Below the pieces are notes generated by a model. The model saw nothing but the letters and a program-made list of their open reading frames with translations. It was not told the DNA's origin and ran no database searches. A stretch of 64,000 bases of DNA from Ostreococcus lucimarinus (Eukaryota): NCBI GenBank assembly GCA_000092065.1, contig CP000590.1; one strand, written 5' to 3'. Both the position numbers and the translations under genes were made by a program. This document shows, in pieces, positions 1 through 64,000 of the stretch; positions within the stretch are counted from its first letter, which is position 1; every line of letters begins with the position of its first letter.

Positions 1-150
1 CCCTAAACCCTAAACCCTAAACCCTAAACCCTAAACCCTAAACCCTAAACCCTAAACCCTAAACCCTAAACCCTAAACCCTAAACCCTAAACCCTAAACC
101 CTAAACCCTAAACCCTAAACCGAAACCCTAAACCCTAAAAGCATGAGTCT
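1..150. repeat. Telomere repeat array (CCCTAAA)n, about 21 units, with one variant unit CCGAAA at about 121. It is written as the C-rich strand 5'->3', the orientation expected at a left chromosome end.
   Basis: Direct reading: perfect 7-mer tandem array from base 1. The unit is the reverse complement of TTTAGGG, the Arabidopsis-type telomere also used by green algae. Confidence 0.95.
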
Positions 151-7100: not shown

Positions 7101-9980
7101 CTCATAAAGGCTGAGTATGTGGCACTTTCTTTACCAGAGCATAACGGCTTGATAGGTTTCGCTCCTGTGCATCATTTGAACCTTCGTTACGAAGACGCGT
7201 CGGAACGCTTTACGCCGACGCAATGCGTCAAGGCTGTCATCGCACAGCTTCCAGAGGGTGAAATGGGGCGTCTTCTCCTGACGGTTCCCGTTACTAAAGG
7301 AACCACAGCAAGCGGACGAATTGCCGCCGGGACGCTCGTCAAGGGTGTCGTGTCAGAGGTTCAAAATCTGCAGGCATTGGTCGCTTTGCCAAATAACGCT
7401 CGGGGACGACTTTACATTAGCGAGTTCAGCCCCGGTGAAGATACCCCACTGGAGTCTATTTCAGTGGGTTCAACTGTTGAAGCCACTGTGATGGGTCTTG
7501 CTGGAGACCGTGGAGGACTTCTGGACCTGTCGATGCATAGGAAATCCGCGTTTGTGCTTGAAGATGTCTCTGTTGGCGACGACGTGAGCGCGTACGTCGT
7601 TTCCGTAACGGACGATGGGATCAAGGTGACTATCGCTCCCGGAATCACATCCTTCATTCCGAAGATTGAAACGTCGGACAAATCATCTGAGCTCGCCATG
7701 AAGCTGAGCTCTCGCTTCACCGTGGGAGAGCGCGTGTCCGCGATTATCGTTGGAGTTAAGGCGACCAAGAAGCGAGTCGACCTCAGCCTTCGAACGGACG
7801 GCGCATCCGGGTCGTCTCGCGTGTGCGTCGGGGCTAAAGTGCAAGGTATTATTACGCGAGTCGTGGAAAACGTCGGTCTCATGGTTCAACTCGGATCGCA
7901 TTCCGTGGGACGAGTACACTTGACAGACATGGCGGACGAGTACGACGACGATCCGTGCGCCAAGTACGAAGCGGGACAAGTCGTGCAGGTGCGCGTGTTA
8001 AACGCTTCTTCAAACGGAGAACTCGATTTATCTATGCGCGCGTCTCGTTTGAGTAGCAAGCGAACCTCGCCGACGGATCCCGAGATCACGGATATCAGCA
8101 ACCTCGTTCCTGGTCAACGCGTAAAGGGATACGTCAAGGCGACTTCAAAGAAAGGATGCTTCATCGCTCTTTCCCGCGGCATCGACGCTATGTGTAAGCT
8201 GTCAAACCTCGCGGACAGTTTCATCGCGGATCCAGCGAAAACGTTTCCTCCTGGAAAACTTGTCGAAGGACGGATCGTGAGTGCCGATGCGGCTAAAGGA
8301 CGAGTTGAGCTCGCGTTCCGCGAGACGGACGCCACGCAAGGAAATGCAGATGTTTCGACGGTGAAGGTGGGAGACGTGCTCATTGGCACTGTTCGCCGCG
8401 TACAACCGTACGGAGTGTTCGTCAGTCTCGATGGCACGAAGTTATCTGGACTCTGTCACATCTCTATGTTCGCAGACGCTCGAATTAGCGACGATTTGGC
8501 GTCTCACGTGCGCCAAGGCGAAAGGGTGCGAACGAAAGTGTTAGAAATCAACACTGAGACGAACAAGATATCGCTCGGTATCAAGGCTTCGCTCTTTGAA
8601 GACGACGACGGCGACGGAGACGAAGAGATGGCCGACGTCAACACAGCGCACACGTTTGATCCACTGATGGATGTGGATGGTGAAAACGACGGAGAGGACG
8701 ACGACAATGATGGTGAATCCAGCGACGACGACGACGACGACGACGACGACGGCTCCAGCGACGAAGCAAACGCCAGTGAAAGTACGGAGGCGAGTAGCGA
8801 AGAAGGAGAAGAAGAAGAAGAAGAAGAAGAAGAAGAAGAAGAAGAAGAAGAGTCCTCAGAAAGTGGCGAGTCAGACTCCGACATTGACGAAGACGGACCG
8901 CTGCATGCAGACGAGGGCGAATCGACAGACGAGGAATCTGATCCATCTGATTCAGAGGACGCGCCGATCGGCAACGATTTAGGGTTCGATTGGGATGCCG
9001 AAAAAACGGACGCCAGTATGACCGACGTCGCTGATGAAAAGGCGGGTAAGAAGGGTGCCGACAAAGCGCCGTCAAAACGCGAAAAAAAACGATTGAAAGA
9101 GGCGAGGGAGCTCGAAATTTTACAAAAAGAGCAAGAGATGAGAGATGGCGATCATATTCCCGAATCTGCGATGGAGTTTGAAAAGTTACTCATCGCATCG
9201 CCTCGCTCGTCGTTTCTTTGGGTAAGATATATGGCGTTTCACGTCAGCTGTGGCGCGTACGATGAGGCTAAAGAAGTCGCGGAACGAGCTCTCGGAGCGA
9301 TACCCGCCTCGGAAGAGGCTGAGCGCATGAATGTGTGGGCGGCGTATTTGAACTTGGAAAACAAATACGGCACTCCGTCGCCGGAAGAAGCTGTGAAAAA
9401 GCTCTTTACGCGCGCGGTTCAAATCGCCGATGCCAAGCACATGCACTTGACGCTCGTATCGATGTATGAGCGAAACGCTCAAGAGGATGCGCTCGAAGAA
9501 AGCTTGAAGAAGGCGGCCAAAAAGTTTTCGTACAGTGCGAAAATCTGGCTCGCATACATACGCTCTGCTGTGTTGAAAAATGATTCGGAAAAGGCGCGAA
9601 AACTTTTGGATCGCGCGACGCAGTCATTGCCGAAGCACAAACATATAAAGATTCTCACGCGTACGGCTCTCCTCGAGATGAAAGAGGGAAATCCGGAGCG
9701 CGGCCGCACGATGTTTGAGGGTATATTACGAAACTACCCGCGACGTACTGATATTTGGTCAGTGTACATTGATCAAGAAATCAAGCAAGGTGACATTCAA
9801 CGCATCAGAGCATTATTCGAGAGAGCGACGCACCTCGATCTTAACGCAAAGAGCATGAAATTTTTGTTCAAGCGTTACCTGGACTTTGAAAGATCGGAGG
9901 GTGATGACGAACGCATAGCGCACGTGAAGCAAAGAGCGATGGAATACGTTAGCAACAAGTTCGGCTCAGCCGCGGAATGA
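4122..9980 (+). CDS. RRP5: rRNA biogenesis protein RRP5 (PDCD11 homologue): multiple S1 RNA-binding domains plus C-terminal HAT/TPR repeats, about 1950 aa
   Basis: The track ORF opens with GTG at 4047. The first ATG is at 4122 (MGKRTRDKAK). There are N-terminal FPRGG motifs (AFPRGGAASGG, AFPRGGGGG) as in RRP5, more than 10 S1-like repeats (LKPG..V.G.V..V...G..V..), a poly-Glu run encoded by (GAA)n at 8805-8851, and a C-terminal HAT-repeat block (SFLWVRYMAFH...KILTRTALLEMKEGN). Confidence 0.9.
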   Translation: MGKRTRDKAKAEVEDDDDDVDASAFPRGGAASGGRGDEDAFPRGGGGGGDGDDAGRGRKRRSSQRGGDGDGSNDDDDDPFSRISRAAKGASSRAVSSSGGGAKYVETLKYKSLRPGAKLLGIISEVTARGLVMSLPDGLRGTVARAEVAGTFGSSRRNRTAAADGSESSEEEYSSDEDDDDDDAEASLELLYEPGQVLRCAVVSLEKGKTGGKRIELSLRLEKVCEGLTKESLTEGSVAPAVVQSVEDHGYILSFGIADTSGFLPKKNVASDLGEIRKGRIIDVVITGAPKGNKGYFTVTSDQKRIKTSVAHETSATNVDTLLPGMLVNSRIKQILSDGVSVSFMTYFSGTVDCFHTGALATSKGVSSAFKVGQRMRARIIFVDSASKRVSLTLLPHLLDYASIELPKLGKTFQTAKIERVDAGQGVALSISDGKNDIAGYAHVSQLSDERVEKVEKKFKIGRSVSVRVIGHRLLDGVVSVSLKSSVMAQPFFSLDELTPGMLVNGEVLAVEHYGAIVKLAEGIKALCPPLHISDIVGRTTSAKVAPGAKLKFRVLNVDRNSRRATVSHKRTLIKSELPVIGQIEDAVPGSITHGVVTGVNEYGVFVSLYGDLKGLAGLNDLGLLRDQKPSDAFGVGQVVRVQVVSADTSGRLRLSLASGDADGNSASMIINASADALKPGHVVEKAVVTHVASGTGNVEVVFSMEEGNIPGVVPLAHLSDHPLTAQGLSAVLNPGDEIGPLVVLEGKSTRAVMSRKLSLVESSREGKLPATAKEATLGAVFPGYVASATAAGVFVRFLGRLTGLAPPSQLTDGTTGDVHEMFPVGKTVNALILSVDTSTPTPRLSLSLKVSATSSPLSDAPLVRSFFQDIEFLDDRDVGAEDVGISPETAKSLKPGTWMDVSVNETKDYGVLMDVPIDSNVVGLVTPHQIPVDTTFTAGDEVKGYVLDVSRREGVVDIGMRDGLGKFKRNKTSSGKSLKKLKVGDQVSAEVELIKAEYVALSLPEHNGLIGFAPVHHLNLRYEDASERFTPTQCVKAVIAQLPEGEMGRLLLTVPVTKGTTASGRIAAGTLVKGVVSEVQNLQALVALPNNARGRLYISEFSPGEDTPLESISVGSTVEATVMGLAGDRGGLLDLSMHRKSAFVLEDVSVGDDVSAYVVSVTDDGIKVTIAPGITSFIPKIETSDKSSELAMKLSSRFTVGERVSAIIVGVKATKKRVDLSLRTDGASGSSRVCVGAKVQGIITRVVENVGLMVQLGSHSVGRVHLTDMADEYDDDPCAKYEAGQVVQVRVLNASSNGELDLSMRASRLSSKRTSPTDPEITDISNLVPGQRVKGYVKATSKKGCFIALSRGIDAMCKLSNLADSFIADPAKTFPPGKLVEGRIVSADAAKGRVELAFRETDATQGNADVSTVKVGDVLIGTVRRVQPYGVFVSLDGTKLSGLCHISMFADARISDDLASHVRQGERVRTKVLEINTETNKISLGIKASLFEDDDGDGDEEMADVNTAHTFDPLMDVDGENDGEDDDNDGESSDDDDDDDDDGSSDEANASESTEASSEEGEEEEEEEEEEEEEEESSESGESDSDIDEDGPLHADEGESTDEESDPSDSEDAPIGNDLGFDWDAEKTDASMTDVADEKAGKKGADKAPSKREKKRLKEARELEILQKEQEMRDGDHIPESAMEFEKLLIASPRSSFLWVRYMAFHVSCGAYDEAKEVAERALGAIPASEEAERMNVWAAYLNLENKYGTPSPEEAVKKLFTRAVQIADAKHMHLTLVSMYERNAQEDALEESLKKAAKKFSYSAKIWLAYIRSAVLKNDSEKARKLLDRATQSLPKHKHIKILTRTALLEMKEGNPERGRTMFEGILRNYPRRTDIWSVYIDQEIKQGDIQRIRALFERATHLDLNAKSMKFLFKRYLDFERSEGDDERIAHVKQRAMEYVSNKFGSAAE
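8805..8851 (+). repeat. (GAA)n trinucleotide microsatellite encoding poly-Glu inside RRP5
   Basis: Direct reading: gaagaagaagaa... encoding about 16 E residues in an acidic low-complexity segment. Confidence 0.9.
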
Positions 9981-10034
9981 CGAATAGATGAAATTTCTCA
10001 AAACATTTATTACAATTTGAGCAAACAAAGAAAG

Positions 10035-12182
10035 CTAATCTAATTGCGTTGTCCAATCGCACGGCTCGTACATTTTAAGAAATGCTTCCATCTCGTCGCG
10101 CAAAAGCGCCGGGGCAAGCGGTCGCTGCTTTGCATCTGTAAGATGTTCTGGTAAATTTAGAAGCCCGATGAGTATGTTCCGACCGAAATTACGATTCCAC
10201 TTGCTTTCGTCGTCGATAACATGAACGAACCCCCCTTGCATTCCAAACTCGACATGTGTATATGGGAAGTTCGCAGGGATGGTGCTTCTCAGACCTTTTG
10301 GTGGTGCCGTTGACAAGCATTTCTTCGCGTCGTGCGTCGACCATTCAGACTCACACTCATCTATCTCTTTGCGGAAGTACATTTTGGCTTTCTCGCTCAT
10401 CTCCTGCGGTATCGGAATACACTCGACGACGGCGTGCATTCCCCCGTGTCCGAATTTCATCGCCGTCTCGATGAAGCAACAAGCCTTACCCTCTTGCGCG
10501 AACATTCTCACCAAGCACTTTTTGAAGTTTCTCATCTCTTCCCAAACATCTTCATCCACGGCTCGCGAAGACTGCGCATGCGCGATGGGCGCGATGAGGC
10601 AGTGCCCGGGGACGAGTCGGCCATGCGGAGGAAGCATAAGATACGCTAAATTACCGTATGCCACATGCAGGTGCTTCGGTTTGTTGGGTGCATCCATACA
10701 GAACAAGCACTTGTTGTGCAGTGCCTGCGCTCGCTTGAAATCTCGTACAGCCTGCTCCTTTGCGCGAGCCTGCTGCTTCGCGCCGGACCACTTCTTGTTG
10801 CGCGATTCGTACATTTCCAAGCCTCCGTCGTGGTCGTACTCATCGTCGACATCTAACTCTTTACCCCTATATCTCTTGTGACGCGCAATGTTATCCGCCA
10901 AATTGCGATCGTAATCGTTCGTACCCTCGTACTTTTGTTCAGCGACTAAGTCGCGCAACGACTTGCCATCGTCGTCGGCGAAGTATCGTGACCGCTCGCC
11001 ATCGTCAAACCTTTGCGTCGTTTTCGGTGCTCGACGAACCTGTCCTTCGGCGACATTCGCCCCGCCCTTGACCGTGGTGTTCCTACCGAACGCGCCCGGA
11101 GCCGCACGGCCGTCTGCCGTAACCATCGGCAGCGCCTCGATCAAAGCTTCCTCAGTCTTTGCTTGCGATTTGCCGCCAAACAGTCTCGCTTTGAGCGCTG
11201 CCGCAGCGGACATGTTCGTCGAGCCGTGCTGAACCAAGTTTCTACTTTCAGGAACGGGTCGTCTGGTGGGCGGAAGTTCTCGAGCGGCACGTGGAAGCTC
11301 CCGCTCAAAGTTTGTAGGTTTGGCGTCGTACTTCGAAACTTTGTGAAATTCATCCATGAACGATCCATCGGACGCGAACTTGTTCTTCGTCTCGAGCGCC
11401 GAATTGATAAGCTGTTTATCTTCCGCGCGCAACCGCTCAGACTCTTGCGGGCGTCCATCGTCGCGAGGTCTGTGACGCGCGCCGAAAGTCTCTGGCACCT
11501 GCATGCGAGCGCCGTCTTCACCGCCGCCGCGCTGCCTTCCTCCAGCCCTACCTCGGCGGGCGTGTAAATGCGCCTTGCCGTGTGCTGCACTATCACCAAT
11601 ACTACAAACAAGCTCATTCACCGAACCCCAATGTTCGCTTACGACCTCGTTGACGTTTCTACCTTCCGCCGCGGCGCGCTCTTGCGCTCGACGGAGCGCT
11701 TTGAGTCGCCAGCTCGCACCTCCATCGCCCACTACGCTCATAGGCGCCGTGGATGCGACGGGAGCATCGCCACCATCTCCGCGCATTTGTGGATTCAGTT
11801 CGCGCGACGCGACAATCTTCGCCGCTCTTTCCTCCTCCTTGCGCCGCTCGGCCTCTTTGCCTTCATCAGCTCGCGACCTCGCCTTGGACGCGAGCGCTGC
11901 AGAGAAGAAGTCCGACTGCTCGGCTGGCGCGTCCGCGTCCGTCGCCTGTTGTGGCGATATCGGCCGCTCTCGTGCGCCTTCGTGTACCCGTGTGCGCTCT
12001 TCGCTCGCCGATGCGCTCGTCGAATCTCTTCGCCGCCTTTCGGTGGCATCTTCTTCGCTCGCGTCCCGTTCGGCGCGTCTTTGCTTCTTGGACTTGCTCT
12101 CCTTCTTGCGCGATTTCCGGTCGTCACGTTTCCTCTCCTTCCTCGTCTCGCGCTCGTCCGTGAACGCCAGTCCAGACAACAT
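10035..12182 (-). CDS. CWF19L2: CWF19-like protein 2 (CwfJ C-terminal domains 1 and 2; spliceosome-associated), 715 aa
   Basis: ATG verified (cat at 12180-12182). The N-terminus is K/R/E-rich. The C-terminus HLHVAYGNLAYLMLPPHGRLVPGHCLIAPIAHAQS...CCFIETAMKFGHGGMHAVVECIPIP...FPYTHVEFGMQGGFVHVIDDE matches CwfJ_C_1/CwfJ_C_2 (HIT-like). Confidence 0.85.
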   Translation of the reverse strand: MLSGLAFTDERETRKERKRDDRKSRKKESKSKKQRRAERDASEEDATERRRRDSTSASASEERTRVHEGARERPISPQQATDADAPAEQSDFFSAALASKARSRADEGKEAERRKEEERAAKIVASRELNPQMRGDGGDAPVASTAPMSVVGDGGASWRLKALRRAQERAAAEGRNVNEVVSEHWGSVNELVCSIGDSAAHGKAHLHARRGRAGGRQRGGGEDGARMQVPETFGARHRPRDDGRPQESERLRAEDKQLINSALETKNKFASDGSFMDEFHKVSKYDAKPTNFERELPRAARELPPTRRPVPESRNLVQHGSTNMSAAAALKARLFGGKSQAKTEEALIEALPMVTADGRAAPGAFGRNTTVKGGANVAEGQVRRAPKTTQRFDDGERSRYFADDDGKSLRDLVAEQKYEGTNDYDRNLADNIARHKRYRGKELDVDDEYDHDGGLEMYESRNKKWSGAKQQARAKEQAVRDFKRAQALHNKCLFCMDAPNKPKHLHVAYGNLAYLMLPPHGRLVPGHCLIAPIAHAQSSRAVDEDVWEEMRNFKKCLVRMFAQEGKACCFIETAMKFGHGGMHAVVECIPIPQEMSEKAKMYFRKEIDECESEWSTHDAKKCLSTAPPKGLRSTIPANFPYTHVEFGMQGGFVHVIDDESKWNRNFGRNILIGLLNLPEHLTDAKQRPLAPALLRDEMEAFLKMYEPCDWTTQLD

Positions 12183-18546: not shown

Positions 18547-21500
18547 ATGCCCGTCGCGAGCGTCGCGCCGTTGCGTACGTCGTTTCGTGGCGTGAACGCG
18601 AACGGGAGCGACGCCACCGGGGAGCGTCGTCGCCTCCTCTCGTTTCGTCGCGCTCCATCGCGCGCGCGCCGCGATGAAGCGGTAAACGCTCGCGTTCGAG
18701 CGAGTGGGACGTCTGTAGAACCGAGTGTGGATGAAGACGATGAAGAAGTCGACGTCACGGTGACGTCTACGTCGGACCGGTTGGAGGCTCTTTTAAACAA
18801 AGCTTCCACGTCGCCGGTGAACGTGCATGACATAGAACAGTTTTACCCGTACGAATTAGATGGATTTCAAGTCGAAGCCACTGAATTATTGCTACGCGGG
18901 TCATCGGTCGTGGTGTCAGCGCCGACGGGGAGCGGGAAAACTTTAGTCGGTGAGACGGCGATTTTAACTGCGCTGGCGCGCGGAGAAAAGGCGATATACA
19001 CGACGCCGTTGAAGGCGTTATCGAATCAAAAGCTCAGAGAGTTTCAAAAGATTTTCGGTAAAAGACGGTGTGGGTTAAAGACTGGTGATGTGGACATCAA
19101 CGGCGATGCTGACGTCATGATTATGACGACAGAAATTTTGAGGAATATGCTCTATTCAAGCGCTGCAGGTGGCCGCGACGACGAGCGACTCGCCGACGTG
19201 AGTATCATCGTTCTCGATGAGGTGCACTATCTCGCAGATAGATCCCGAGGAACAGTGTGGGAAGAAACAATTATTTACTGTCCTTCTCGCATTCAACTTT
19301 TGTGTCTGTCCGCGACAGTCGGTAATCCAGAGGATTTGTCGGGCTGGATTGAGGAAGTTCACGGCGAATGCGAAACCGTCGTGTCAAGTTACAGACCTGT
19401 TCCCCTCACTTGGCAATACAGCATGAAGCCGTCGCGCATGTATCCAGGGTTGGGACCTTTGATGAATTTCAAATCCACGAAAATTCACCACGATCTACGA
19501 CCTTTTACGCGCGAAGGTCTTCAACAAGGATCGTACGGTAACAACGATTGGGCACCGGATGCGCAAAGAGGCGCGAAAGAGTCTGAGCGCGTTCTCAGAA
19601 GGCGCTTCGTGCCTCACGTCGAAACCACGGTACAGCAGCTCATCGCGAGCGATATGATTCCCGCCGTGTGGTTTATTTTTAGTCGTAAAGGTTGCGACCA
19701 ATCTGTCGATTATCTCGTGCAGGCCGGCGGAAATCTCGTGACGAGCAAGGAACGGCGAGAGATTGATGATGCGTTGAAAGAATTTTCGGAGAAGAACAAA
19801 TCTGCTGTGCGAGCAAGCATGGTTGAGCCTCTAAGACGTGGCATAGCGTCACATCACGCCGGGTTGCTTCCAGCGTGGAAAGGTCTAGTAGAGAAATTGT
19901 TTCAGCGAGGACTAATCAAGGTGGTTTTCGCTACGGAAACACTCGCCGCAGGAGTGAACATGCCGGCACGATGTTCCGTGTTAAGTGCGCTTTCCAAGCG
20001 AGATGATCAAGGTCCACGACTACTAACTTCCAATGAGTTCATGCAAATGGCTGGTCGAGCGGGCCGTCGTGGGTTTGACACCGTTGGCCACGTCGTGTGC
20101 TGTCAGTCACCATTTGAGGGCCCGGACGAAGCTTTCGAGCTCGTTCTTGCGCCACCTGAAAACTTGAAGTCGCAATTTTCTATTTCTTACGGTATGGTTT
20201 TGAATTTACTCCAAGGTAGAACGCTCGATCAAGTCAAGGGAATCGTGGAGAGAAGTTTTGGCAACTACCTTGGTGGTAAGGCGCGTTCGATGCGCGAGCG
20301 CGAACTTCTTCGTGTCAATGATCAGATCAGAAAACTGGTGAGCGAGATGGAGACACTCGATGATGATGAAGAAGCCGCGGAGTGGAGACGTTTCGTGAAG
20401 CTGGATGAACGGCTACATGAAGAAAAGCGCTTGCTAAAAATCTTGATTCGGCAATTAGCTGAAATGCGGGCAATTGAAACGCGGGATCAACTACAGTTCG
20501 AGCTCGAACAGACGGGTGCTCCAGTCATCGTTACGATTGATATTGGTGACAACGTTCTCAAACGGCGCAAAGAACGACGATCGGCTACGATCGCTCTATT
20601 TGAAGATGATTCTTTGAAGATGGAGGGTCAAGACTTTGCGGGCGAATGGAGATTGCAAGATATTGGTGGCGACGATGCTCCCGGTTTGGACGAGTTATTC
20701 GGCGATTCCGACGATGAAAGTCAAAACGATGATTTTTTGCAGTCTTTTGACGACGACGACGGTAAGTTCCCCAGAGGTCTCATCACCGCCGCAATCGTCG
20801 AGGCTGTTCCGGCGATGAAAATTGCGGCGACTGCGAGCACAATCGGTAAGCCATATCCGATGGGCGAATTCACCGCCCTAGGAAATGATGGTGTCTGGTA
20901 CCGTTTGTACTCCGATCGAGTAAAATCTATAAGCCTCGGCGCCGATGCGGTGCGCTTGGAAAGTTTTGGCGACATCGGCGTGCCGCCGGCTTCGAGCAGT
21001 CTTCGATGGATCCGCGCGAGCGGCGGAGGTTTGTGGAAGGCGGATGTGTCTAAAAAGACCAAGTTGGTCGCTAATGGGATACCAACTAACTTGAACGACT
21101 TTGAAATGATCGTCGAATCGTCGGATTCGATGGAATTTATCGACGCGCAGAAGTTACAGATTCAAAAGACGCGCGAGGAGATAAACGGCTTGAAAAACAT
21201 CGCCACCTTGCGCCGCGCTGCGAAGCAGCAAAAGCGGGCGGAGACGAAACTGAAAAAGCTAAAAGAAAAACGTGATGGAATTGAAAAACGTATCAAAGAG
21301 TATTCTGCCGCGGGCTGGGACGATTTCTTGAGAGTTGTCGATATTCTTGTCGAGTGCGGCGCGATCGAGAGAGACACCCTAAAATTGTTGGAGTTTGGTG
21401 AGACCTGTGCTGACTTGAGAGGGGAAAATGAATTATGGCTTGGCATGGCTATGTCTTCGCCGAGTATCGAGAATTTGGACGCCGCGACTCTTGCAGGTTT

Positions 21501-24869: not shown

Positions 24870-25190
24870 GTCGCGAAGATGGCGACGCTCGAGAACTCCC
24901 GTCGAGTTTACGAACCAACCCTCGCGCTCGCCTCGTCGAAGTCGCCGTGTGTCGAGGCACACCAGACGAGGCACATTTCGCACCGCCGCCGGCGGCTTTC
25001 CTAAACCCCAACGCGCGCGCCCGGCGACGCCGACGGCGCTCGTTTGGTCGACACGCGCGAACTAAAAAACATCGACACACGCGAATGAATCGATACACGT
25101 TACGATCGTGGCAAATAATGATTATATTAGCACAAAAAGCAATCAATGCGTTGAAGCGAAGCATGGATATTGCCGCGCGACGACGGCAGT

Positions 25191-27017: not shown

Positions 27018-27225
27018 CCTCGACGACGCCCCGCGACGACGCGCTCGGGACGACGACCGCGAACGGACGACCGCGGTGAGGAAATCGAGCGATCGCGTCG
27101 ACGGCGCGTCGGCGTCTGCCGCGGGGCACACGGCGGGTCCTTCACGAGGCGACGGAGACCCGGCCCCCCGCCCCGCCTCGCCCCGCACCGCACAGCGCGA
27201 CGACTGATTGCGGTGACCCACGACG

Positions 27226-27867
27226 ATGTCGCGCGCGTTCTCGTCCACGAAAGCGTCGACGAGCGTGACGAATGCGTCCCGACAACATCGACGAAGACGC
27301 GCGTCGTCGTCGTCGTCGTCGCGTCGTTCGACGCGCGCGCGCGCGTCGTCGCGACGCGCCGTCGAAGCGCGCGCCGCGTCCGAGGGCTCGCTCACGGATA
27401 CTTTGGAACTCACCGCGGATAACATCGAGAGCGTGCTGGACGAAGTGCGACCGTACTTGATCGCGGACGGTGGTGACGTCGAACTCGTCGAAATCGACGG
27501 ACTGTCGGTGAAGCTGAAGCTCAAGGGCGCGTGCGGATCGTGCCCGTCGAGCACGGTGACCATGCGCATGGGGATAGAGAAGCGCTTGTTGGAAAAGATT
27601 CCAGACATCATGGAAGTCATACAGGTGGAGGAAAAGCTCGAGGGATTGGACCTGAACGAAGAAAACGTGGAGGCAACGTTAGACGAGATCCGACCGTACC
27701 TCGCCGGCACGGGCGGGGGAGAACTCGAACTCATCGACATCGAAGAACCCATCGTCAAGGTGCGCCTGACGGGACCGGCGGCCAAGGTGATGACGGTGCG
27801 CGTCGCGGTGACGCAAAAATTACGCGAAAAAATCCCATCCATCGCCGCCGTCCAATTGACGGAATGA
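27226..27867 (+). CDS. NFU: NifU-like Fe-S cluster scaffold protein, plastid CnfU/NFU type with two tandem NifU C-terminal domains, 213 aa
   Basis: ATG at 27226 verified. The transit peptide is S/R-rich. Domain 1 carries the CxxC motif ([28 protein letters not shown]). Domain 2 is degenerate and lacks CxxC, as in plant NFU1-3. Confidence 0.8.
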
Positions 27868-28102
27868 GCGCCGATTTAATCACCTCGGAATTGATTTCAT
27901 ATTAACTTGTAACCAGCGACGACGCTCGAGACGCGCCACCAACCGCCTCACAACTCGGACGACCAAGCGCGCGAGCAGACGACGAACCGTTCGAGCTATC
28001 GAGCGGTGCGATCTGTTCGTCAACACGACCTCGCGTCTCGCCGTTCACGACGCACGAACAACGAGCGCGGAACCATAGAGGGAAGAGTCGTCTTAGGAGG
28101 CG

Positions 28103-42947: not shown

Positions 42948-45032
42948 TCATGAGTCGTGGCGCGATCGTGTCACGTCTCCTTGGGGGGGGCGAATTCTTT
43001 CATCGGCCCAGAAATCGACATATTCGTCAAACTTGGGGCAGCAGCGATGATGTCGAAACATTCCTGTTTCTTTTTCGAGTCGCTTGTAGACTTCGTTCAC
43101 TTCCTCCGCCGCGGGTTTCCAGTCCATGTACGCAAAGTTGACCGCAGCTTTCCAGCCGTCGCCCAAATTCACGCCCCAGTGAACGGATCCGTAGTCGGTG
43201 ACGACGTATTCGCCCGCTCTTTGAACGTGTCGATAAACATGGATCTTCTCTTCGCCATTCACGCGCTTTGAATTCCAATCCTGGATCCGCGCCGGATCGA
43301 GCCAAAGCCTGCGCATCTCGAGAATGTCAACCGTGTATTCCGCGCCGAGCGTTTCTTGCAAATACGTGTGCAGCAAGTACAGATCGGATCGAGGAATACT
43401 ATACCAAACGACCGCCGAATGCGAGTCCGGACGAGCCAAGATGACATTTGCCGAAGCGAACGCGTAGTCCTCGAAATGCAAGGGGAAAATAGACCCGACA
43501 CCCATGTAGTAAAGCCAAGGAGACACGATGCCGACGCCCCAGAGTCGAGTCTCGCTCGCCTTCTCCGTGGCCATCTCGGCGGCTTCTAAGACGGCGGCTT
43601 CTATCACAGTACCAGCGGAGCTGTGCTTTTTGCCCTTCTTCTTATCTTCTCGCCGTTCGATTCTCCGTTGAACGGCAGATTGGTCTACTTTCGTAACCAC
43701 TCCGCCCGTTCGCCCTTTCTCCTCCGCTCGGGCCTCCTCCGCCGACTGCGGCGTTGCGCAGTCCAGGGCGGCGTCGAGAGACAGCCTCTTATTCACCACG
43801 TTCTGGGTTTCACACAGCTCCAAACACCGTCGTAACACACTTGGCTTTCTCTGACCCAGTAATCGAGGATCCCAAGGATGGGTTTGGGGCGTTTCAGACG
43901 CGTCCACGGCTCGAACATTCTTCATGAGTGCCTCCATCGCGATGCCTTGAAGGTATGGAAACTGGAGTGGAAAACCAGAATGAATTTGCTGTAAGAACCA
44001 GCATTCACGAGCGTTGACGTCCATGAGTCTAAACTGATCGGCGTGCGTACGACATCGCTCTTGAAAATCTTCCACAAAGGCGCCGATTTCCATGTTGGAG
44101 TCCACGTCATTCATCGCTCGAAACGGCTCGAGCAGGCCCGTCTTTCTGTCCGGCAAGTTTTGTCTAATGTACTGATAGTCGGGTCCAAGGGTGCGGAGCT
44201 TGATGGATTTGGTGCCGACCCAAGACAAGTCACACAGCGCGCTCGTATCGTCTAAGATGTCCCACCCATCGCTAATCTTGATCACCATCGCCCCTTGCTT
44301 GCCGAACTCGCTCCACCACGCTTTGTCTTCGCCTTGCAACAGTTGCTCTGGCGTCACGCCTAGATTCATGCAACTGTACACCGTGGGCAGCGTCGACGTG
44401 TCGTTTTTCCGCATGCTTTTGTGCGTGCGCAGCTCGCACAGTTTGATCGATTCGGGCCCAGTTCGCGAGGGCTTGGACGTCACCGGGGGTGGCGTTCGTC
44501 CGCTCGTCGTCTCGTGTCGCAAGTGCACCGCCGTCTCCTCGCTCGAGTTCGCCCCTGAGCTCGAGTGGTGGTCGTGATCGCCGCTAACGATGGCATCCTC
44601 AAACGTCGCACCTTTACCGTCCCAAATCCCGCGCGCGCGCGCCGGCTCCTCGTACCTGTACGCCGGCTCTGGACTCAACTCGCCCGCCGCGAATTTCGCC
44701 GCGAATCTCGCCCTCTTCTCCTCAAAGTCTCGCTTCTCCTCCATCTCGTGCGGCTCCATCCGTTCGCGTTCACCGTTATCGCACACGTTCAACGCCCGAT
44801 GCGGTCGCTCGGCGTGATATCGCCGCATCGCTCGCTTCGCCGCGTCGTTCCCTCGCCGCCGCTTCCCGCGTCGGCGTTCGCCTTCGCGTTCGCGTCCCGC
44901 CGCCTCCTTCCCTCGCCGCGCCCCCTCGCCGCGCCTTCCCGTCGTCCGTCGACGCGCGTTCGCCTCCGCGCTTTCGCACCATCTCGTCGCCGATCCCGGG
45001 CCGTCGTCTTCGCGCGCGCGCTCCCACGCCAT
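42948..45032 (-). CDS. JmjC-domain protein with a C-terminal KDM4/KDM5-type JmjC domain (putative histone lysine demethylase), about 694 aa. The 5' end is uncertain.
   Basis: The JmjC core is ..PWLYYMGVGSIFPLHFEDYAFASANVILARPDSHSAVVWYSIPR...YRHVQRAGEYVVTDYGSVHWGVNLGDGWKAAVNFA (H-x-E ... H Fe-ligand pattern). The start is set at the ATG at 45030-45032 (MAWERARE..). The upstream 1 kb of the track ORF is R-rich low complexity and overlaps exon 1 of the opposite-strand RING gene. Confidence 0.55.
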   Translation of the reverse strand: MAWERAREDDGPGSATRWCESAEANARRRTTGRRGEGARRGKEAAGREREGERRRGKRRRGNDAAKRAMRRYHAERPHRALNVCDNGERERMEPHEMEEKRDFEEKRARFAAKFAAGELSPEPAYRYEEPARARGIWDGKGATFEDAIVSGDHDHHSSSGANSSEETAVHLRHETTSGRTPPPVTSKPSRTGPESIKLCELRTHKSMRKNDTSTLPTVYSCMNLGVTPEQLLQGEDKAWWSEFGKQGAMVIKISDGWDILDDTSALCDLSWVGTKSIKLRTLGPDYQYIRQNLPDRKTGLLEPFRAMNDVDSNMEIGAFVEDFQERCRTHADQFRLMDVNARECWFLQQIHSGFPLQFPYLQGIAMEALMKNVRAVDASETPQTHPWDPRLLGQRKPSVLRRCLELCETQNVVNKRLSLDAALDCATPQSAEEARAEEKGRTGGVVTKVDQSAVQRRIERREDKKKGKKHSSAGTVIEAAVLEAAEMATEKASETRLWGVGIVSPWLYYMGVGSIFPLHFEDYAFASANVILARPDSHSAVVWYSIPRSDLYLLHTYLQETLGAEYTVDILEMRRLWLDPARIQDWNSKRVNGEEKIHVYRHVQRAGEYVVTDYGSVHWGVNLGDGWKAAVNFAYMDWKPAAEEVNEVYKRLEKETGMFRHHRCCPKFDEYVDFWADERIRPPQGDVTRSRHDS

Positions 45033-45370: not shown

Positions 45371-45382
45371 TAATTAGGGTTG
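45371..45382. promoter_or_regulatory. Telo-box-like motif, aTTAGGGTTg (8/9 match to TTAGGGTTT), next to a TATAAT-like element in the JmjC / RING-PB1 divergent promoter
   Basis: Direct reading: gggtataattagggttgcgacgg. Confidence 0.35.
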
Positions 45383-56819: not shown

Positions 56820-57190
56820 CGCGCGCGAAACACCCGCGCTTTCGTCGACGCTCGCGCGTCCGTCGCGCGCTCGTCGCGACGCGCGCCGAACCGAACGCGC
56901 GCGTCGTTCGATCGGTCGTCGTTCGCGCCAACGCTGTCACGATCGGCGTCGCGTCGTCGCGCGCGCGCTGCGGTGCGGTGCGGTGTCGCTCGCGACGACG
57001 CGCGCGCGCGACGATCGTCGTTCGTCGCGCGCGCTCGCGTGCGGCTCGGGCGTTCGACGCCGCGCGGCGCGAGGGCCAAGATGTGCCGAGGCGCCGGGGC
57101 GGTCGCCGCGCGCGCGTGTTTGAAATGGAGCGCGGGTCGGAGGTCGCGAGCGGTGTTGCGTGCTTACAAGCGAGCGGAAGCGTGATTAGT

Positions 57191-58990
57191 TTAAATAGTC
57201 GGGAAATCGAAGAGAATGTCTTCGTCGTTGACGTCGGCGTGGACGTTCGCTTTGATGGGCTCGTCGTCGAAGGACATGCGCGCGGTGGCGACGGAGACGG
57301 GGTGTTCGAAACCGGCGGACGCGTCGCGAGAGGGCGATTGTCGGACGCCGCCGGCCCGGTTTTGACTGACGTAAAGCTGTAAATCGCGGGATAGCTCTTG
57401 GTGCTTTTTCTGGAGGTCGTGGATCTCGGCCTCGAGGGCAACTTGCTCGCGGAGGTAGTCGCCCTGACTTGCGCCCGGAGCCTGGACCATGGAGACGTTG
57501 CACAGACGAAGCTTGACGTTTGCGTCGTGGAGATGCGCCACGGTGTGCGAGATTGCTTTTCGTAAAGACGCGAGCTTGGACGTATCCGGTAAGCACGCGG
57601 ACTGCTGCGTCATTTGATCGTCGTAACGGGCGAGTCGCTGATTCTGAAGCATCTCCAACCGCAACTGTTCGTTGGCGAGGTGCAGCGAGTTGCCCCAAGC
57701 CATGTCCGTGCTACTGTGCGCTCTCGCCCCGTTCTGGTGCTGCATGAATTGCGAGATGAAGTTGTCCGGATCGGTTTCATCGAATACACGTCTGAAGCCG
57801 TTTTCTTGTCGTTCCGCTTCTGTGAGTTTTCTTCTACCACTCGCCTTCGACGCCGGTTTCTGCTCCGCCGACTCGATGGGCTTCCTCTTCATCACCGTAC
57901 CTTTCACCGACATGGGCTTCAACTTGCTCACTCGCTCTCGGATCTGTGTTTGACGCTCACGCGATTGATTTTCCGGGCGCAGCAAACACGATTTTGGCGC
58001 CGTTTCAGTGCCGCACTTGCCCTTCTTACTGCGCTTGCAGACGTCGCATTTGAACGATGCCACGCGGCTGCGGCCAACCCTGGCGGACGTCACCGCGCCG
58101 CTCGGAGGACGCGTGGCGGTTTTCGGGCCAGCGTTTTTGAAGTCATTGAGACTTTTCATCCCAGGTGGTGCGTCGCACGAGTCGTCGTCCGATGCGTCGC
58201 TAAACTTGTTCAATCCTTGCGCCCGCCAAGTCGTGGTGAACATCAGCTCGGCTAAATCGCACAGCTTTCTCATTCTGCTAGACGACGGGTAACAGGACCG
58301 ACAGTTGGACCAAATCGAATTGCACGCTTTCCAAACCTCTCGAGACGACGCAAAGGCGTTCATTCTAAGTTTGTTCAGCACGATCGTCAGACCCATGGGC
58401 TCTTCCACCACGGACCCGTAATTCGCGCGCTCCACCGTCTGCGGATCGATGGGATCCCGGAAGTTCAACGCCTCGGGTTGATTTATGAAGTTTTCGAGTA
58501 AATGCTTGCATTTCTCCAGCTCCAATTGATTTTGAACGCGCTCATTCGCGAGCGCAACATCTGATCTAGGGAATAAATCCTTATCTTCCCGTCCTAACCC
58601 AACCTGCGTCGTGTTCGCGCCATCCGATCCCGCGCTCGTCGCAGCCGTGGAATCGAGCGAAAGCACGCTCGCAGATTTCGGCATCTCGAGCGCCTCCCGC
58701 GATATTCCCACGCTCGGAATGCACACTAACCCCCCAAGCTCGCCGATTCCTCTCGAGGTCCATTTATCGTCGAAATACGCGCGAACGACCCGAACGGCGT
58801 CTAGCCTCGACGTCGCTCCCTCCCTCGTCCACTTGTCTTCTAAAAACGCCCACGTGCGCTCCACGTCCACTTTGTAATCATCCGTCGTGTCGTACTTCCT
58901 ATCGTACGCCCGCTTGATCACCCACTCCAATCGTCCGCTCGGTCCATCGCCGTGCTCTCGTTCGATCTCCTCCGCTCGAACCGATCGCAC
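57191..58990 (-). CDS. Bromodomain-containing protein with a C-terminal coiled coil, about 599 aa. The 5' end is unresolved.
   Basis: Bromodomain-like core: FRDPIDPQTVERANYGSVVEEPMGLTIVLNKLRMNAFASSREVWKACNSIWSNCRSCY. The track ORF opens with GTG at 58990, and the first in-frame ATG is at 58684 (codon 103). Yet the first 100 residues (WVIKRAYDRKYDTTDDYKVDVERTWAFLEDKW..) look like real protein. This suggests an upstream exon or a non-AUG start. Confidence 0.6.
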   Translation of the reverse strand: MRSVRAEEIEREHGDGPSGRLEWVIKRAYDRKYDTTDDYKVDVERTWAFLEDKWTREGATSRLDAVRVVRAYFDDKWTSRGIGELGGLVCIPSVGISREALEMPKSASVLSLDSTAATSAGSDGANTTQVGLGREDKDLFPRSDVALANERVQNQLELEKCKHLLENFINQPEALNFRDPIDPQTVERANYGSVVEEPMGLTIVLNKLRMNAFASSREVWKACNSIWSNCRSCYPSSSRMRKLCDLAELMFTTTWRAQGLNKFSDASDDDSCDAPPGMKSLNDFKNAGPKTATRPPSGAVTSARVGRSRVASFKCDVCKRSKKGKCGTETAPKSCLLRPENQSRERQTQIRERVSKLKPMSVKGTVMKRKPIESAEQKPASKASGRRKLTEAERQENGFRRVFDETDPDNFISQFMQHQNGARAHSSTDMAWGNSLHLANEQLRLEMLQNQRLARYDDQMTQQSACLPDTSKLASLRKAISHTVAHLHDANVKLRLCNVSMVQAPGASQGDYLREQVALEAEIHDLQKKHQELSRDLQLYVSQNRAGGVRQSPSRDASAGFEHPVSVATARMSFDDEPIKANVHADVNDEDILFDFPTI

Positions 58991-59703: not shown

Positions 59704-59724
59704 AGTTAGGGTCGTTAGGGTTTA
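59704..59724. promoter_or_regulatory. Tandem telo-box motifs (TTAGGGT-cg-TTAGGGTTT) in the divergent promoter between the bromodomain gene and the SEC-C protein gene
   Basis: Direct reading: gtagttagggtcgttagggtttatg. TTAGGGTTT is the exact reverse complement of the plant telo box AAACCCTAA. It lies about 100 bp upstream of the 59830 ATG and more than 700 bp from the bromodomain ORF. Confidence 0.5.
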
Positions 59725-59829
59725 TGAAAAGGCCGCGACGCGCCGGCGACCGCGCCGGGACGCGCGCGCGCGGCGTCGCACGCCGACGCGCGCGGCGCTC
59801 GAGCGCCGTCTTCGCGTCCGTCTCGCGCG

Positions 59830-60498
59830 ATGCGCGTCGCGTCGACGCGCGCGCGCGCGGGCGTCGCGGCGCCGCGAACGCGCGACGCGCGAGACCGCGG
59901 ACGCCGCCGGGACGCGACCGCGCGCGCGCGACGCGGGATGCTGGGCGACGCGATGCGCGAGCGCGACGACGCGAGCGAGGAGAGAACGGGGAAACAACGC
60001 GGCGCGTCGGGGTGCGCGTGCGGGAAAGACGCGAGCGTGGCGTACGAGGCGTGCTGCGGGCGGGCGCACGGGGACGCGAACGCGGCGGCGGCGCTCGCCG
60101 CCGAGGACGTGATGCGCGCGAGATTCACGGCGTACGTCGTCGGCGACGCGCAATATATCGTGAGCTCGACGCACGAAGAGTCCAAAGATCGCGCGCGGGA
60201 GTCCCTGCTGAGGGACGCGGAGAACACGATCAAGCGAATACGATTCCACTCGTTTCGAGCGAAGCGGTCGAGCGAGAAAGACGGCGAGGCGTACGTGACG
60301 TACGAGGCGGATTACACCCAAGGAAAGGGAAGGGGAAAGATGAAAACGTTAGCCGAACGCGCGCGCTTGCGAAGAGACGCGGAGACCGGAGGGTGGAAAT
60401 TTGTGGACGCCGTGGCGTTGGGCGCGAACGCGTCGCTCGACGACGCGGGCGACGCCGCCGCGCCGGGCGCGCCCGATCCCAGCCGCCGACCGATGTGA
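59830..60498 (+). CDS. SEC-C-motif protein of the YchJ/UPF0225 family (NTF2-like fold flanked by Cys-rich SEC-C motifs), 222 aa
   Basis: ATG at 59830; an internal ATG at about 59938 (MLGDAMRER) is also possible. ..GCACGKDASVAYEACCGRAH..RARFTAYVVGDAQYIVSSTH..IKRIRFHSF..EAYVTYEADYTQ..GGWKFVD fits the YchJ pattern. Confidence 0.55.
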   Translation: MRVASTRARAGVAAPRTRDARDRGRRRDATARARRGMLGDAMRERDDASEERTGKQRGASGCACGKDASVAYEACCGRAHGDANAAAALAAEDVMRARFTAYVVGDAQYIVSSTHEESKDRARESLLRDAENTIKRIRFHSFRAKRSSEKDGEAYVTYEADYTQGKGRGKMKTLAERARLRRDAETGGWKFVDAVALGANASLDDAGDAAAPGAPDPSRRPM

Positions 60499-60644
60499 CG
60501 ACGCGACGACGGACGCGTCTTCCGCTTGTGATGTAATGCACTCGATATTTGGTGCGCCCGCGCGATCCGCGACGCACCTCGAAACGTCTCCGCAGACGCC
60601 CGCGGCGCCGCACTTTGCGACGCGCTCGCGTCGATCGGTCCATC

Positions 60645-61331
60645 ATGTCCACGCCATCGCTCCGTCGCGCCTCCGCCGCGGTCGCGCGCGCGGCGTCGTC
60701 GGCGCTCGCGACGACGCGCGTGTCGTCGTCGCCCGCGATCTCGATCGCGCGCCGGGCGTTCGTCACCGCGCCGCGTCGCGACGATTTCTTTGACGCCGCC
60801 GTGAAATCGTCGTCGACGACGACGTCGTTCGCGGCGTCTCTCTCGCTCTCGCGCGCGTACGCGAGCAAGGGAAAGAAAGCGTCCAAGTCCAAGTCGTCGC
60901 AGGGCAAACGGACGAAAGGCAAGGGCATGGGCGCGCTCCCGATCAGCGCCAAGGCTGAGCACACGACCAAGGGCAATAAAAACACGTACCTCGAGGCGCT
61001 GACGAAGCTGGACGCGACGGAAATCGAGGAAAACCTGACGCCCGAGGAGCTCGCGGAGTACGAAGCGCGAGCGAAGGCGTACTCTCGAGAGAAGATGCGG
61101 GCAGAGCGCGCGTTTGCCGCAGATATTAACGAAAAGATTAGGATTAAAAAGGCGGCGATTGCGGCGTTGCCCGCGGGGGCGACGCGAGACGCGGCGATGG
61201 TGGAGGATGAAGATTTGTTTCCGTTGAAGCGTAAACTGCCCATGTACACGCCCGCGATTCCTGGGTTCTACGAGGATAAACAGAGGTTAGCCGAAGAGGC
61301 GGTGAGCGGTGGGGCGGCTTTGAAAAAGTAG
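60645..61331 (+). CDS. Hypothetical K/A-rich protein with a mitochondrial-presequence-like N-terminus (possibly a mitoribosomal protein), about 228 aa
   Basis: The start is set at the ATG at 60645 (MSTPSLRRASAAVARAASSALATTR..). The 5' part of track ORF 60549.. is R-rich. The C-terminal part is a basic, coiled-coil-like segment. No confident family assignment is possible. Confidence 0.4.
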   Translation: MSTPSLRRASAAVARAASSALATTRVSSSPAISIARRAFVTAPRRDDFFDAAVKSSSTTTSFAASLSLSRAYASKGKKASKSKSSQGKRTKGKGMGALPISAKAEHTTKGNKNTYLEALTKLDATEIEENLTPEELAEYEARAKAYSREKMRAERAFAADINEKIRIKKAAIAALPAGATRDAAMVEDEDLFPLKRKLPMYTPAIPGFYEDKQRLAEEAVSGGAALKK

Positions 61332-61495
61332 AAGCGAAAACGCGAGAACGTTGCGATGAAGAATATTACTCATAGATTAGATTTCAACTTGCAGATCGGC
61401 GACAATACTAACGAGCACCAGCTTCCATCGCCGTAGTCTCCTATTCTCGTTTTCGTGTTTGTGCTATAATTGAATTCAGACGTTCTCGCGAACAT

Positions 61496-62836
61496 CTAAA
61501 TGTTCTCGCGAAGGACCTTGACGACGGACTTGAACGCGAACCACTCTGGAATGTCCTCGCCGCCTCTCAACATTTGGCGGAACTTGGTGCCGCTGAGCTT
61601 CTTGATGTTGAGACCCTTCTCCTTGGCGACATCGGCGGTGACGTAGCCTTCTTCTTCGGTGTACACGACGTTCAAGCTCGGGACGGTTTTCATGCCGAGC
61701 TCAGCCGCGTTCGCCTTGGCCAAGTCTTGGGCGTCGTACGCGCCGTAAAAGTCTTCTCCGTCGAGGGAAGACTTGGAACCAGCCATATCGCGACCGATGA
61801 TGAAGTGCGTGCAGCCGTAGTTCTTACGAATGATCATGTGCTGAATAGCTTCGCGCGGACCCGCCATGTGCATGGAGTACGGGAGGTAGGCCCAGCGAAT
61901 TTGCGGGTTCTTCACCTCTTCCGCGAGGACGACGTACGTCTTGTATCGCACCAAGCCCGAGATGTCGTCGTCTTGGGTCGGACCCATGGTCGGGTGAACG
62001 AGGCACACGGCGTCCTTACCGACGTTTTCCGCGTGCAAAGCGCGAGTGAAGAGCTCGTAGTGCGCGCGGTGCACCGGGTTGCGGCACTGGAACGCCACGA
62101 CATCCTTACCCGCGGGCAACCCCGCGCGCACCTCGGCGGGCGTCGGGCACGGAAACGGTCGCTGCGGAATGTTCAAACCCTCAATCTTACCACCGATGTA
62201 ATACTTGCGACGCTCCATGGAGATCATCGCCACGCCGGGATGCTCGATGGAGCTCGTCCCGTAGCACATCTTCGCCTCTTTCGGCTTATTCGGCTTCCAC
62301 TTCGACTCCACCGTCAGCACGCCGACGTCCTTGCCCTGATACTTGAGCAACACTCTGTCGCCCGCCTTGGTGTCCTCGCAATTCGTGTCCAACACGATCG
62401 GCAGCCCGAACAACAGCTCGCTCCCCTTCAACCGCATCGTCTCCACGCAGTGTTCGTACTCGTCCTCGTTCATGAACCCTCGCAGCGGCGAGAACCCCCC
62501 CGCGCTCAGCAGCTCGACGTCGCACGCGTTTCGATCCGACAGCTCGAGCGCCCGCGTGCACGACGCGATCGCCCTCGCCTTCGCCCCGTCGTCCTCGAGC
62601 ATCAGATTCACCAGCGCGCCGCCGTGCGGCGCGATCAACCCTTCGCTCTGCGACGCGAACGTCCGCTCGCGCGCCGTCATCGCGCGTCGCGCCGTCGCCG
62701 TCGCCGTCGCCGTCGAACCCTGAGGCGTCGTCGCCGCCGTCGCGAGCGCGTCGCGCGGCGCCCCCGGCGCGGGCCGCGTCACCGCGCATCGCGCGCGACG
62801 CAGCGCATCGCGCGCGAGTCTCGCGCGCATCGCCAT
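61496..62836 (-). CDS. ATPS: ATP sulfurylase (sulfate adenylyltransferase), plastid-targeted, 446 aa
   Basis: ATG verified (cat at 62834-62836). QCRNPVHRAHYELFTRA (the PP-motif region), ..VCLVHPTMGPTQDDDISGLVRYKTYVVL.., ..GCTHFIIGRDMAG.. An S/T/A-rich transit peptide precedes the catalytic core. Confidence 0.88.
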   Translation of the reverse strand: MAMRARLARDALRRARCAVTRPAPGAPRDALATAATTPQGSTATATATARRAMTARERTFASQSEGLIAPHGGALVNLMLEDDGAKARAIASCTRALELSDRNACDVELLSAGGFSPLRGFMNEDEYEHCVETMRLKGSELLFGLPIVLDTNCEDTKAGDRVLLKYQGKDVGVLTVESKWKPNKPKEAKMCYGTSSIEHPGVAMISMERRKYYIGGKIEGLNIPQRPFPCPTPAEVRAGLPAGKDVVAFQCRNPVHRAHYELFTRALHAENVGKDAVCLVHPTMGPTQDDDISGLVRYKTYVVLAEEVKNPQIRWAYLPYSMHMAGPREAIQHMIIRKNYGCTHFIIGRDMAGSKSSLDGEDFYGAYDAQDLAKANAAELGMKTVPSLNVVYTEEEGYVTADVAKEKGLNIKKLSGTKFRQMLRGGEDIPEWFAFKSVVKVLRENI

Positions 62837-62977
62837 CGTCCGTCGTCGCGCCGTCGTCGTGTGTCGCGCCGCGCGCGCGGCGGCGATCGATCGCGGCCCG
62901 CGCCGCGTCGCCGTTCGAGCGTTTCTATTTAGACATCCACCTACCCGGAATACGCGCCGAATGGAGATATCAGAGCG

Positions 62978-63012
62978 ATCCTAAACCCTAAACCGATCCT
63001 CAACCCTAAACA
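62978..63012. promoter_or_regulatory. Interstitial telomere-like / telo-box cluster (cCTAAACCCTAAACC ... AACCCTAAAC) in the ATP-sulfurylase / HSP60 divergent promoter
   Basis: Direct reading: gatcctaaaccctaaaccgatcctcaaccctaaacaccc. It is in the C-strand orientation and contains exact AAACCCTAA. It lies about 140 bp from the ATPS ATG and about 320 bp from the HSP60 ATG. Confidence 0.5.
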
Positions 63013-63169
63013 CCCGGGCGTGGAAAAAGGCCCCCGACGCGACGCGTCCCACATCGCCACGCGACGACGCGACGAACGGCGCGATGCGACGACACGCGAC
63101 GCGCGCGATGCGAGCGCTCACGCGGTACGACGACGACGACGACGACGAACGCGTGCGATGCGCGCGAGC

Positions 63170-64000
<831 letters not shown>

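Follow-up and report, generated by a model that had tools for sequence, protein, structure and literature searches.

Are short copies of the telomere repeat that lie between genes, well away from the chromosome end, read by the cell as promoter elements, or are they inert remains of DNA repair and duplication? The question is raised by a stretch of 64,000 nucleotides from the alga Ostreococcus lucimarinus (GenBank assembly GCA_000092065.1, contig CP000590.1), hereafter the window, in which a sequence-only reading had found units of the plant telo-box (AAACCCTAA) in two intergenic regions and near-matches in two more, and had proposed a regulatory logic like that of land plants. In this study I show that these sites have the identity of the organism's own telomere repeat, exceed chance expectation, are located between genes, persist among closely related strains and turn over. 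I consider it about an even bet (probability roughly 0.5) that they constitute a sparse promoter element with fast turnover, read by a putative telomere-repeat-binding factor.

Telomere-like tracts in the intergenic DNA

The window starts at a chromosome end, as is evident from the approximately 19 phased CCCTAAA repeats at 1-138. This terminal array, (CCCTAAA)n on the plus strand (1..138), comprises 18 phased matches to AAACCCTAA between 5 and 138, and degenerate copies run on to about 531 (ACCCTA at 211, 288, 513 and 526). Its repeat unit is the model copied by the interstitial motifs. Outside the telomere, the whole window holds the exact AAACCCTAA only twice, at 59715 (minus strand) and 62983 (plus strand), and both copies are part of longer tracts. 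The first tract, strong site 1 (59706..59724, minus strand), reads TTAGGGT-cg-TTAGGGTTTA on the plus strand and TAAACCCTAA-cg-ACCCTAA on the minus strand, with TTAGGGT at 59706-59712, cg at 59713-14 and TTAGGGTTT(A) at 59715-59723(4). It is situated 106 bp 5' of the ATG of a YchJ-like gene (59830, plus strand) and more than 700 bp from the open reading frame of a bromodomain gene (57191-58990, minus strand). Strong site 2 (62980..63011, plus strand) consists of four degenerate telomere units, CCTAAACCCTAAACC-gatcctc-AACCCTAAAC, of which CCTAAACCCTAAACC occupies 62980-62994 and AACCCTAAAC occupies 63002-63011; it is found 144 bp 5' of the ATG of the ATP sulfurylase (ATPS) gene (62836, minus strand) and 316 bp 5' of that of HSP60 (63327, plus strand). 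Both tracts are where the sequence-only reading had placed them, apart from a start for the second (62979) that was one base off.

Two weak sites complete the set. In the divergent region between a JmjC gene (42948-45032, minus strand) and a RING-type gene, TTAGGGTT is present at 45374..45381 (minus strand), 90 bp 5' of the RING-type ATG (45471, plus strand). Upstream of NOP14, CCTAAACCC at 25000..25008 (plus strand, with C at 25009), which is GGGTTTAGG on the gene strand, is located 131 bp 5' of the ATG (24869, minus strand), where about 130 bp and a start at 25001 had been given. Distances to the nearest ATG, as opposed to transcription starts, are 90-316 bp upstream. Three of the four sites have a divergent intergenic context and the NOP14 site is flanked by two genes of equal orientation, so the earlier description of all of them as bidirectional promoters holds for three. 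The gene identities given there are confirmed by Pfam, which finds the bromodomain gene, the YchJ_M-like gene of the SEC-C family (59830-60498, plus strand), ATP sulfurylase (61496-62836, minus strand), Cpn60 (HSP60, from 63327, plus strand), Nop14 and JmjC.

In order to compare these counts with chance, I simulated the window minus its first 700 bp with an order-3 Markov model (n = 300). Beyond these 700 bp the exact AAACCCTAA is observed twice in the whole window, against 0.17 expected; telomere-phase runs of at least 9 bases are observed 6 times (0.40 expected), runs of at least 10 bases 3 times (0.09 expected) and same-strand clusters twice (0.02 expected), and none of the 300 simulations reached the observed run and cluster values. 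A composition-matched k-mer control shows a comparable picture, with 14 9-mers versus 1.95 expected and 8 10-mers versus 0.48 expected. Given the excess in both controls, 59706-59724 and 62980-63011 are real telomere-like tracts. The weak sites have a different standing, as similar single matches are present within coding sequence (8978, 21376, 25443 and 26525), and the single 8-9-mers at 45374 and 25000 are therefore near chance level when taken alone. The near-matches claimed at these two places thus exist, are intergenic and persist among strains, but individually they hardly exceed what chance would provide.

A map of open reading frames based on codon usage puts approximately 35 genes in the window and leaves 8.3 kb (13%) as intergenic DNA; the map is approximate and omits a NifU gene (about 27.2-27.9 kb) as well as some small first exons. 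This 13% holds all eight telomere-phase ten-base words, 12 of the 14 nine-base words and 6 of the 17 runs of at least 7 bases. Within the 64-kb window, the motif is over-represented in intergenic DNA with respect to the rest. The intergenic regions that bear the sites have a GC content of 58-72%, a composition that disfavours this AT-rich word, and the telomere-like words form small AT-richer islands inside these GC-rich promoters. The mean GC content of the window is 0.57; promoter-containing intergenic regions are mostly above this value, up to 0.80, whereas convergent 3' intergenic regions are mostly AT-rich (0.26-0.44 in eight of ten). None of the four sites is found in the AT-rich convergent regions of the window. 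When the weak sites are counted, about 4 of approximately 22 promoter regions carry the element.

Persistence among strains and turnover between lineages

The ATP sulfurylase of the window shares a 90% cluster with the proteins of O. lucimarinus CCE9901 and O. tauri, and seven contigs from the O. lucimarinus clade (L001-L007) match the window at 96-99.9% identity; the window therefore represents the initial 64 kb of a chromosome of this clade. One strain of 96% identity (contig_16783, here L005, L101 and L103) keeps a telomere-like word at all four sites, even where the flanks are scrambled. Site 1 is identical in L006 and L007, and L005 retains the proximal TTAGGGTTTA with the distal unit mutated to TTGAGGGT. 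At site 2, all contigs of the clade that are readable there carry the proximal AACCCTAAA(C) (L007 has a run of N). In L005, the surrounding 90 bp between ATPS and HSP60 are rearranged, and AACCCTAAA(C) and ACACCCGGGC alone are still recognisable. The distal 15-mer of site 2 is restricted to the window and L006; an 18-nt unit, CGATCCT[A/C]AACCCTAAAC, that was duplicated in tandem explains it.

The weak sites are maintained in a less literal manner. Upstream of NOP14, the 96%-identical strain has a closer match to the telomere repeat, AGGGTTTAGG. In the JmjC/RING region each of four haplotypes carries at least one telomere-like word, at two different positions: L102 keeps TTAGGGTT between diverged flanks, L103 shows AGGGTTT in the aligned position and a new GGGTTTAGG 85 bp upstream, and L104 has the upstream GGGTTTAGG only. 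Taken together, the patterns at the four sites resemble binding-site turnover under stabilising selection, a suggestion more than a conclusion at about 4% divergence.

Outside the clade I compared the HSP60 loci of O. tauri (L008) and of lineages with an HSP60 identity of 89% (L009/L010), 93% (L011), 87% (L012, with 67% GC and a contig that ends in a telomere) and 79% (L013). Chromosome 10 of O. tauri (L008, 49.8-71 kb) is approximately 85% identical in coding sequence, and its intergenic DNA is unalignable. ATPS and HSP60 are adjacent in O. tauri, L009/L010, L011 and L012, and no telomere-phase 8-mer is found in the ATPS/HSP60 intergenic region of these lineages, nor at the L013 locus. As the adjacency also exists in lineages free of repeats, the repeats of site 2 are a clade-specific gain within an old intergenic region, by which a relict fusion is rejected and deep conservation is seen to be lacking.

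O. tauri possesses a two-unit site of its own, TAGGGTT-gaacgc-TAGGGTTTAG, which lies 35-58 bp 5' of the ATG of a DUF1138 gene in a divergent promoter shared with Dna2, and the O. lucimarinus ortholog of DUF1138 lacks it. The same two-unit architecture recurs at different genes in different species.

Two further arrangements were observed at these loci. In L012, a (TTTAGGG)n telomere (18616-18733) lies about 8 kb from the ATPS-HSP60 pair, on the HSP60 side, which indicates that the block is subtelomeric in several lineages, though differently arranged. In L013, two tandem Cpn60 genes (7808-12008) are found without an ATP sulfurylase neighbour.

Candidate explanations and the genes concerned

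The reading that I favour, at the probability given above, holds that the sites are short interstitial copies (1-4 units of TTTAGGG) of the organism's own telomere repeat, set in the AT-richer cores of GC-rich promoters. They would serve as promoter-proximal sites for a putative double-strand telomere-repeat-binding protein, most plausibly of the Myb/'telobox' type, and its binding would presumably affect transcription. The element is found in a minority of promoters, is not confined to translation genes, and evolves quickly: it is gained and lost, shifts its position and undergoes small duplications in tandem. Such rapid turnover would explain why the element is kept within the O. lucimarinus clade and not between Ostreococcus species.

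Several observations weigh against this reading. Sister strains keep the motif in the orthologous promoters at all four sites, but both strong sites are missing from those of O. tauri and of four other Mamiellales lineages; by the criterion that the sequence-only reading had set for itself, this absence counts against conservation outside the species clade. At about 4% divergence, moreover, persistence among strains is weak evidence, and the ATPS/HSP60 motif sits in the most indel-prone part of its intergenic region, so that a mutational hotspot would fit as well. The orientation of the motif relative to the nearest gene is not consistent among the sites. Strong sites are also sparse, with three in all the Mamiellales sequence examined, and a 22-kb Ostreococcus region containing RPS23 and the gene for organellar S17 has no intergenic telomere-like run. 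Finally, the plant proteins that bind telo-boxes, the TRB family, are reported to be of streptophyte origin (PMC10167121).

Alternatively, the sites may be neutral by-products of slippage, small tandem duplication or telomerase-assisted break repair, which survive in tolerant intergenic DNA and have no regulatory role. I regard this as the main rival, possible if somewhat unlikely. In its favour, the distal 15-mer (62980) differs between strains and represents an 18-nt unit duplicated in tandem, and the core that surrounds it is the most indel-rich part of the ATPS/HSP60 intergenic region. It would also account for the lack of the motif in the orthologous promoters of five other lineages and for the lack of a common function among the flanking genes, and Ostreococcus promoters do bear other, unrelated tandem repeats. 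However, a neutral origin does not readily explain why one perfect unit is kept in every readable strain, even with scrambled flanks, why the JmjC/RING words arise independently at two positions in different haplotypes, or why AGGGT(TT) recurs in the NOP14 promoters of four lineages. Nor are there sites in the AT-rich 3' convergent intergenic DNA, where insertions should be tolerated at least equally well.

The proposal that started this analysis, a plant-type telo-box regulon of ribosomal-protein, translation, ribosome-biogenesis and chaperone genes, would be a special case of the promoter element that I favour, and it is unlikely. The strong sites flank genes for a bromodomain protein, a YchJ-like protein, ATP sulfurylase and mitochondrial HSP60, none of which is ribosomal or involved in translation. 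HSP60, which adjoins site 2, is a point in favour as a chaperone gene, but its promoters in five other lineages lack the motif. In the window there is no run of at least 7 bases upstream of RRP5, the MTR4-like helicase, the DEAD-box helicase, the MRP-L28-like gene, IF3 or DnaJ. The SPB4 and MTR4 promoters are free of the motif in every lineage sampled, and among the lineages sampled no run of 7 or more bases lies upstream of the MRP-L28-like, IF3, organellar S17 and DnaJ genes. The plant partner element, site II (TGGGCY/RGCCCA), does not occur within 150 bp of any of the four sites, and only one of its 19 occurrences in the window is intergenic. Another possible partner, GGAAA(A)GCC, is seen beside the telo-box at 24994 and 63022, and was dismissed as not general, with five matches in the window, two of them intergenic. 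Moreover, a comparative study found the link between telo-boxes and ribosomal-protein genes to be specific to land plants, and absent from Chlamydomonas and Ectocarpus (PMC3212954). A plant-like logic of ribosome and translation genes is not demonstrated by this small sample.

Some hints do speak for such a regulon. The NOP14 promoter has retained a telomere-like word in four Ostreococcus lineages, with GGGTTTAGG in the window, AGGGTTTAGG in L101, AGGGTTT at -200 in L099 and TAGGGT approximately 20 bp 5' of the ATG in L100. AGGGT(TT) is found upstream of RRP5 in two of three lineages (as AGGGTTT, 23 bp upstream, in L099), and in L100 AGGGTTT lies 63 bp 5' of the Cys-tRNA synthetase gene (CysRS). 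However, words of 6-7 bases are expected by chance at about 0.1-0.8 per promoter, and these NOP14, RRP5 and CysRS matches have to be read accordingly.

One cytosolic ribosomal-protein gene was sampled, RPS23, for which metagenome contigs were queried with an Arabidopsis sequence, yielding 80 loci. By their neighbouring proteins, L016 is M. pusilla-like and L021 is M. commoda-like, and further loci resemble Ostreococcus (58% GC) and Bathycoccus (48% GC) in protein similarity and GC content. The first exon of RPS23 is tiny (ATGGG), and its first intron measures 370-570 nt. The 400 bp upstream of exon 1 contain no run of at least 7 bases in any lineage. Within intron 1, TTTTAGGGTTC or TCTAGGGTTC is found 100-140 nt before the 3' splice site, that is, 5' of exon 2, in the M. 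pusilla-like, the M. commoda-like, three other Micromonas-like and one Ostreococcus-like lineage (L016, L017, L018, L019, L021 at 4870-4880, L023, L024, L028 and L030). Most Micromonas-like lineages have GTATTTTT(N)CCGC after it, and in four lineages another copy, AGGG[C/T]T, occurs close to the 5' splice site. Of 11 lineage introns, which are approximately 70% GC, 7 contain TAGGGTT; this word is thereby as frequent as the branch-point word GCTGACC, and commoner than every other word that is not CG-rich.

The conservation of this intron word shows that it is under constraint somewhere in this algal class, which also speaks for the promoter element that I favour, and the footprint is genuine. 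At the DNA level it could act, for instance, as an intronic enhancer or, given that GTATTTTT follows it, as an internal promoter; otherwise it could belong to an intronic RNA. Rfam detects no known RNA family in the RPS23 intron; in O. tauri, 72 small nucleolar RNAs (snoRNAs) are intronic (PMC7671301).

That the sites are relicts of an ancient telomere, left by a chromosome fusion or a healed end, is very improbable: the sites are less than 64 kb from a chromosome end and the ATPS-HSP60 pair of L012 is about 8 kb from a telomere, but that telomere lies beyond HSP60 and not between the two genes, the adjacency is ancestral and its synteny unbroken, with no repeats between the genes in O. tauri, L009, L011 and L012, and each tract consists of 2-4 units, all on one strand and with no head-to-head arrangement. 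On this point the sequence-only reading, which had argued against relict fusions, was correct. Least credible of all is that one site represents the template region of a telomerase RNA gene, as the C-strand run of 10-15 nt has the right template size and the plant-type upstream sequence element (USE) TCCCACATCG occurs at 63037-63046, but this element lies downstream of the run and is missing in L001, L002, L004 and L005, no CCCRTAA was seen by eye in the 200 nt preceding either run, the intergenic DNA offers too little room and already serves two promoters, the 15-mer is polymorphic between strains, and Rfam has no match at the sites; I therefore rejected it. The USE of O. lucimarinus is reported to be CCCRTAA (PMC8287931, Table 1). 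The copy of TCCCACATCG, a perfect USE of the type found at plant small nuclear RNA genes, is shared by the window, L003 and L006 and replaced in the four contigs just named, and is probably fortuitous in view of this variability.

Comparable systems and neighbouring features

The plant telo-box (AAACCCTAA) is found in promoters and 5' untranslated regions of Arabidopsis and rice, where it is bound by TRB proteins and by AtPur-alpha. The sites in Ostreococcus resemble it in their sequence, as AAACCCTA(A), approximately 1.3 telomere units of the host, has an exact match at both strong sites, and this identity results from the fact that both organisms have TTTAGGG telomeres. They also resemble it in consisting of 1-3 units close upstream of the coding sequence, and in their restriction to a minority of promoters, about 10% in Arabidopsis (PMC2576244) versus about 4 of 22 here with weak sites included. 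In Arabidopsis the telo-box is positioned from approximately -60 to +140 with respect to the transcription start (PMC2576244). The differences are that in the window there is no association with site II (TGGGCY), that neither strong site adjoins a ribosomal-protein or translation gene, and that the orientation is inconsistent. TRB proteins are reported to originate in the Klebsormidiophyceae and the family to be absent outside the streptophytes (PMC10167121), so any binder in Ostreococcus must be another protein.

Another parallel is offered by fungi. Tbf1 in budding yeast and Candida and Teb1 in fission yeast are TTAGGG-binding Myb proteins that act at non-telomeric promoters of snoRNA, ribosomal-protein and histone genes. 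The link between Tbf1 and snoRNAs is cited in PMC7671301. These fungi, as Ostreococcus may do, employ telomere repeats in their promoters within compact genomes of single cells, and the sites change rapidly from one species to the next; the present sample differs in having no coherent class of target genes.

Vertebrates, including mammals, provide the parallel for a neutral origin. Their short interstitial telomeric sequences are a few repeats inserted at repaired breaks, and share with the sites in the window the few exact, lineage-specific units, the syntenic flanks and a copy number that varies among close relatives. Here, however, the units are restricted to 5' intergenic DNA, a unit survives rearrangement of its flanks, and new positions appear in the same promoter.

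Among the papers searched, none reports telo-boxes in promoters of Ostreococcus or Micromonas. If the sites are functional in these algae, the logic either dates to the base of the green lineage or evolved more than once, and a reader protein different from TRB would be implied. A wider proposal, which I consider possible but rather unlikely, is that telomere repeats were already reused in transcription before land plants and the TRB family arose, with a putative prasinophyte (Ostreococcus, Micromonas) factor reading TAGGGTT-type sites; its targets would be the NOP14, RRP5, HSP60/ATPS and JmjC/RING promoters together with the first intron of RPS23. If true, telomere-binding proteins would be tied to growth-related expression across all green plants. 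As Ostreococcus has very short promoters and is transformable, the idea can be tested directly. Should the sites be neutral, they would be a clean example of the origin and turnover of telomere-like tracts in a very compact genome.

Some further features of the window and of the related contigs deserve mention. The NifU-domain gene omitted from the map is seen in the sister contigs L099-L101 between the genes for ERGIC and Cys-tRNA synthetase, and corresponds to approximately 27200-27870 (plus strand) of the window, a region that the map merges with Cys-tRNA synthetase or with intergenic DNA. ARAGORN predicts an 80-nt tRNA-Ala(CGC) at 56957-57036, in a GC-rich stretch between the alpha-amylase and bromodomain genes; as Rfam has no tRNA there at its gathering threshold, the prediction may be a false positive. 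The 5' region of HSP60 contains an (ACGA/GAACGAAT)n microsatellite (63170-63225) that differs in length among strains. Promoter regions in Ostreococcus also contain tandem direct repeats with units of approximately 33-62 bp that are unrelated between species, such as those at 9470-9830 of L008 (O. tauri HSP60/ATPS) and, between Dna2 and DUF1138, at 1990-2300 of L006 and 2200-2400 of L005; examples are four copies of gtacgtattccacgcc.cattgtcccatgtgtg, and three copies of a 45-bp unit in O. tauri. The ATP sulfurylase protein of the window is identical to proteins encoded on marine and estuarine metagenome contigs.

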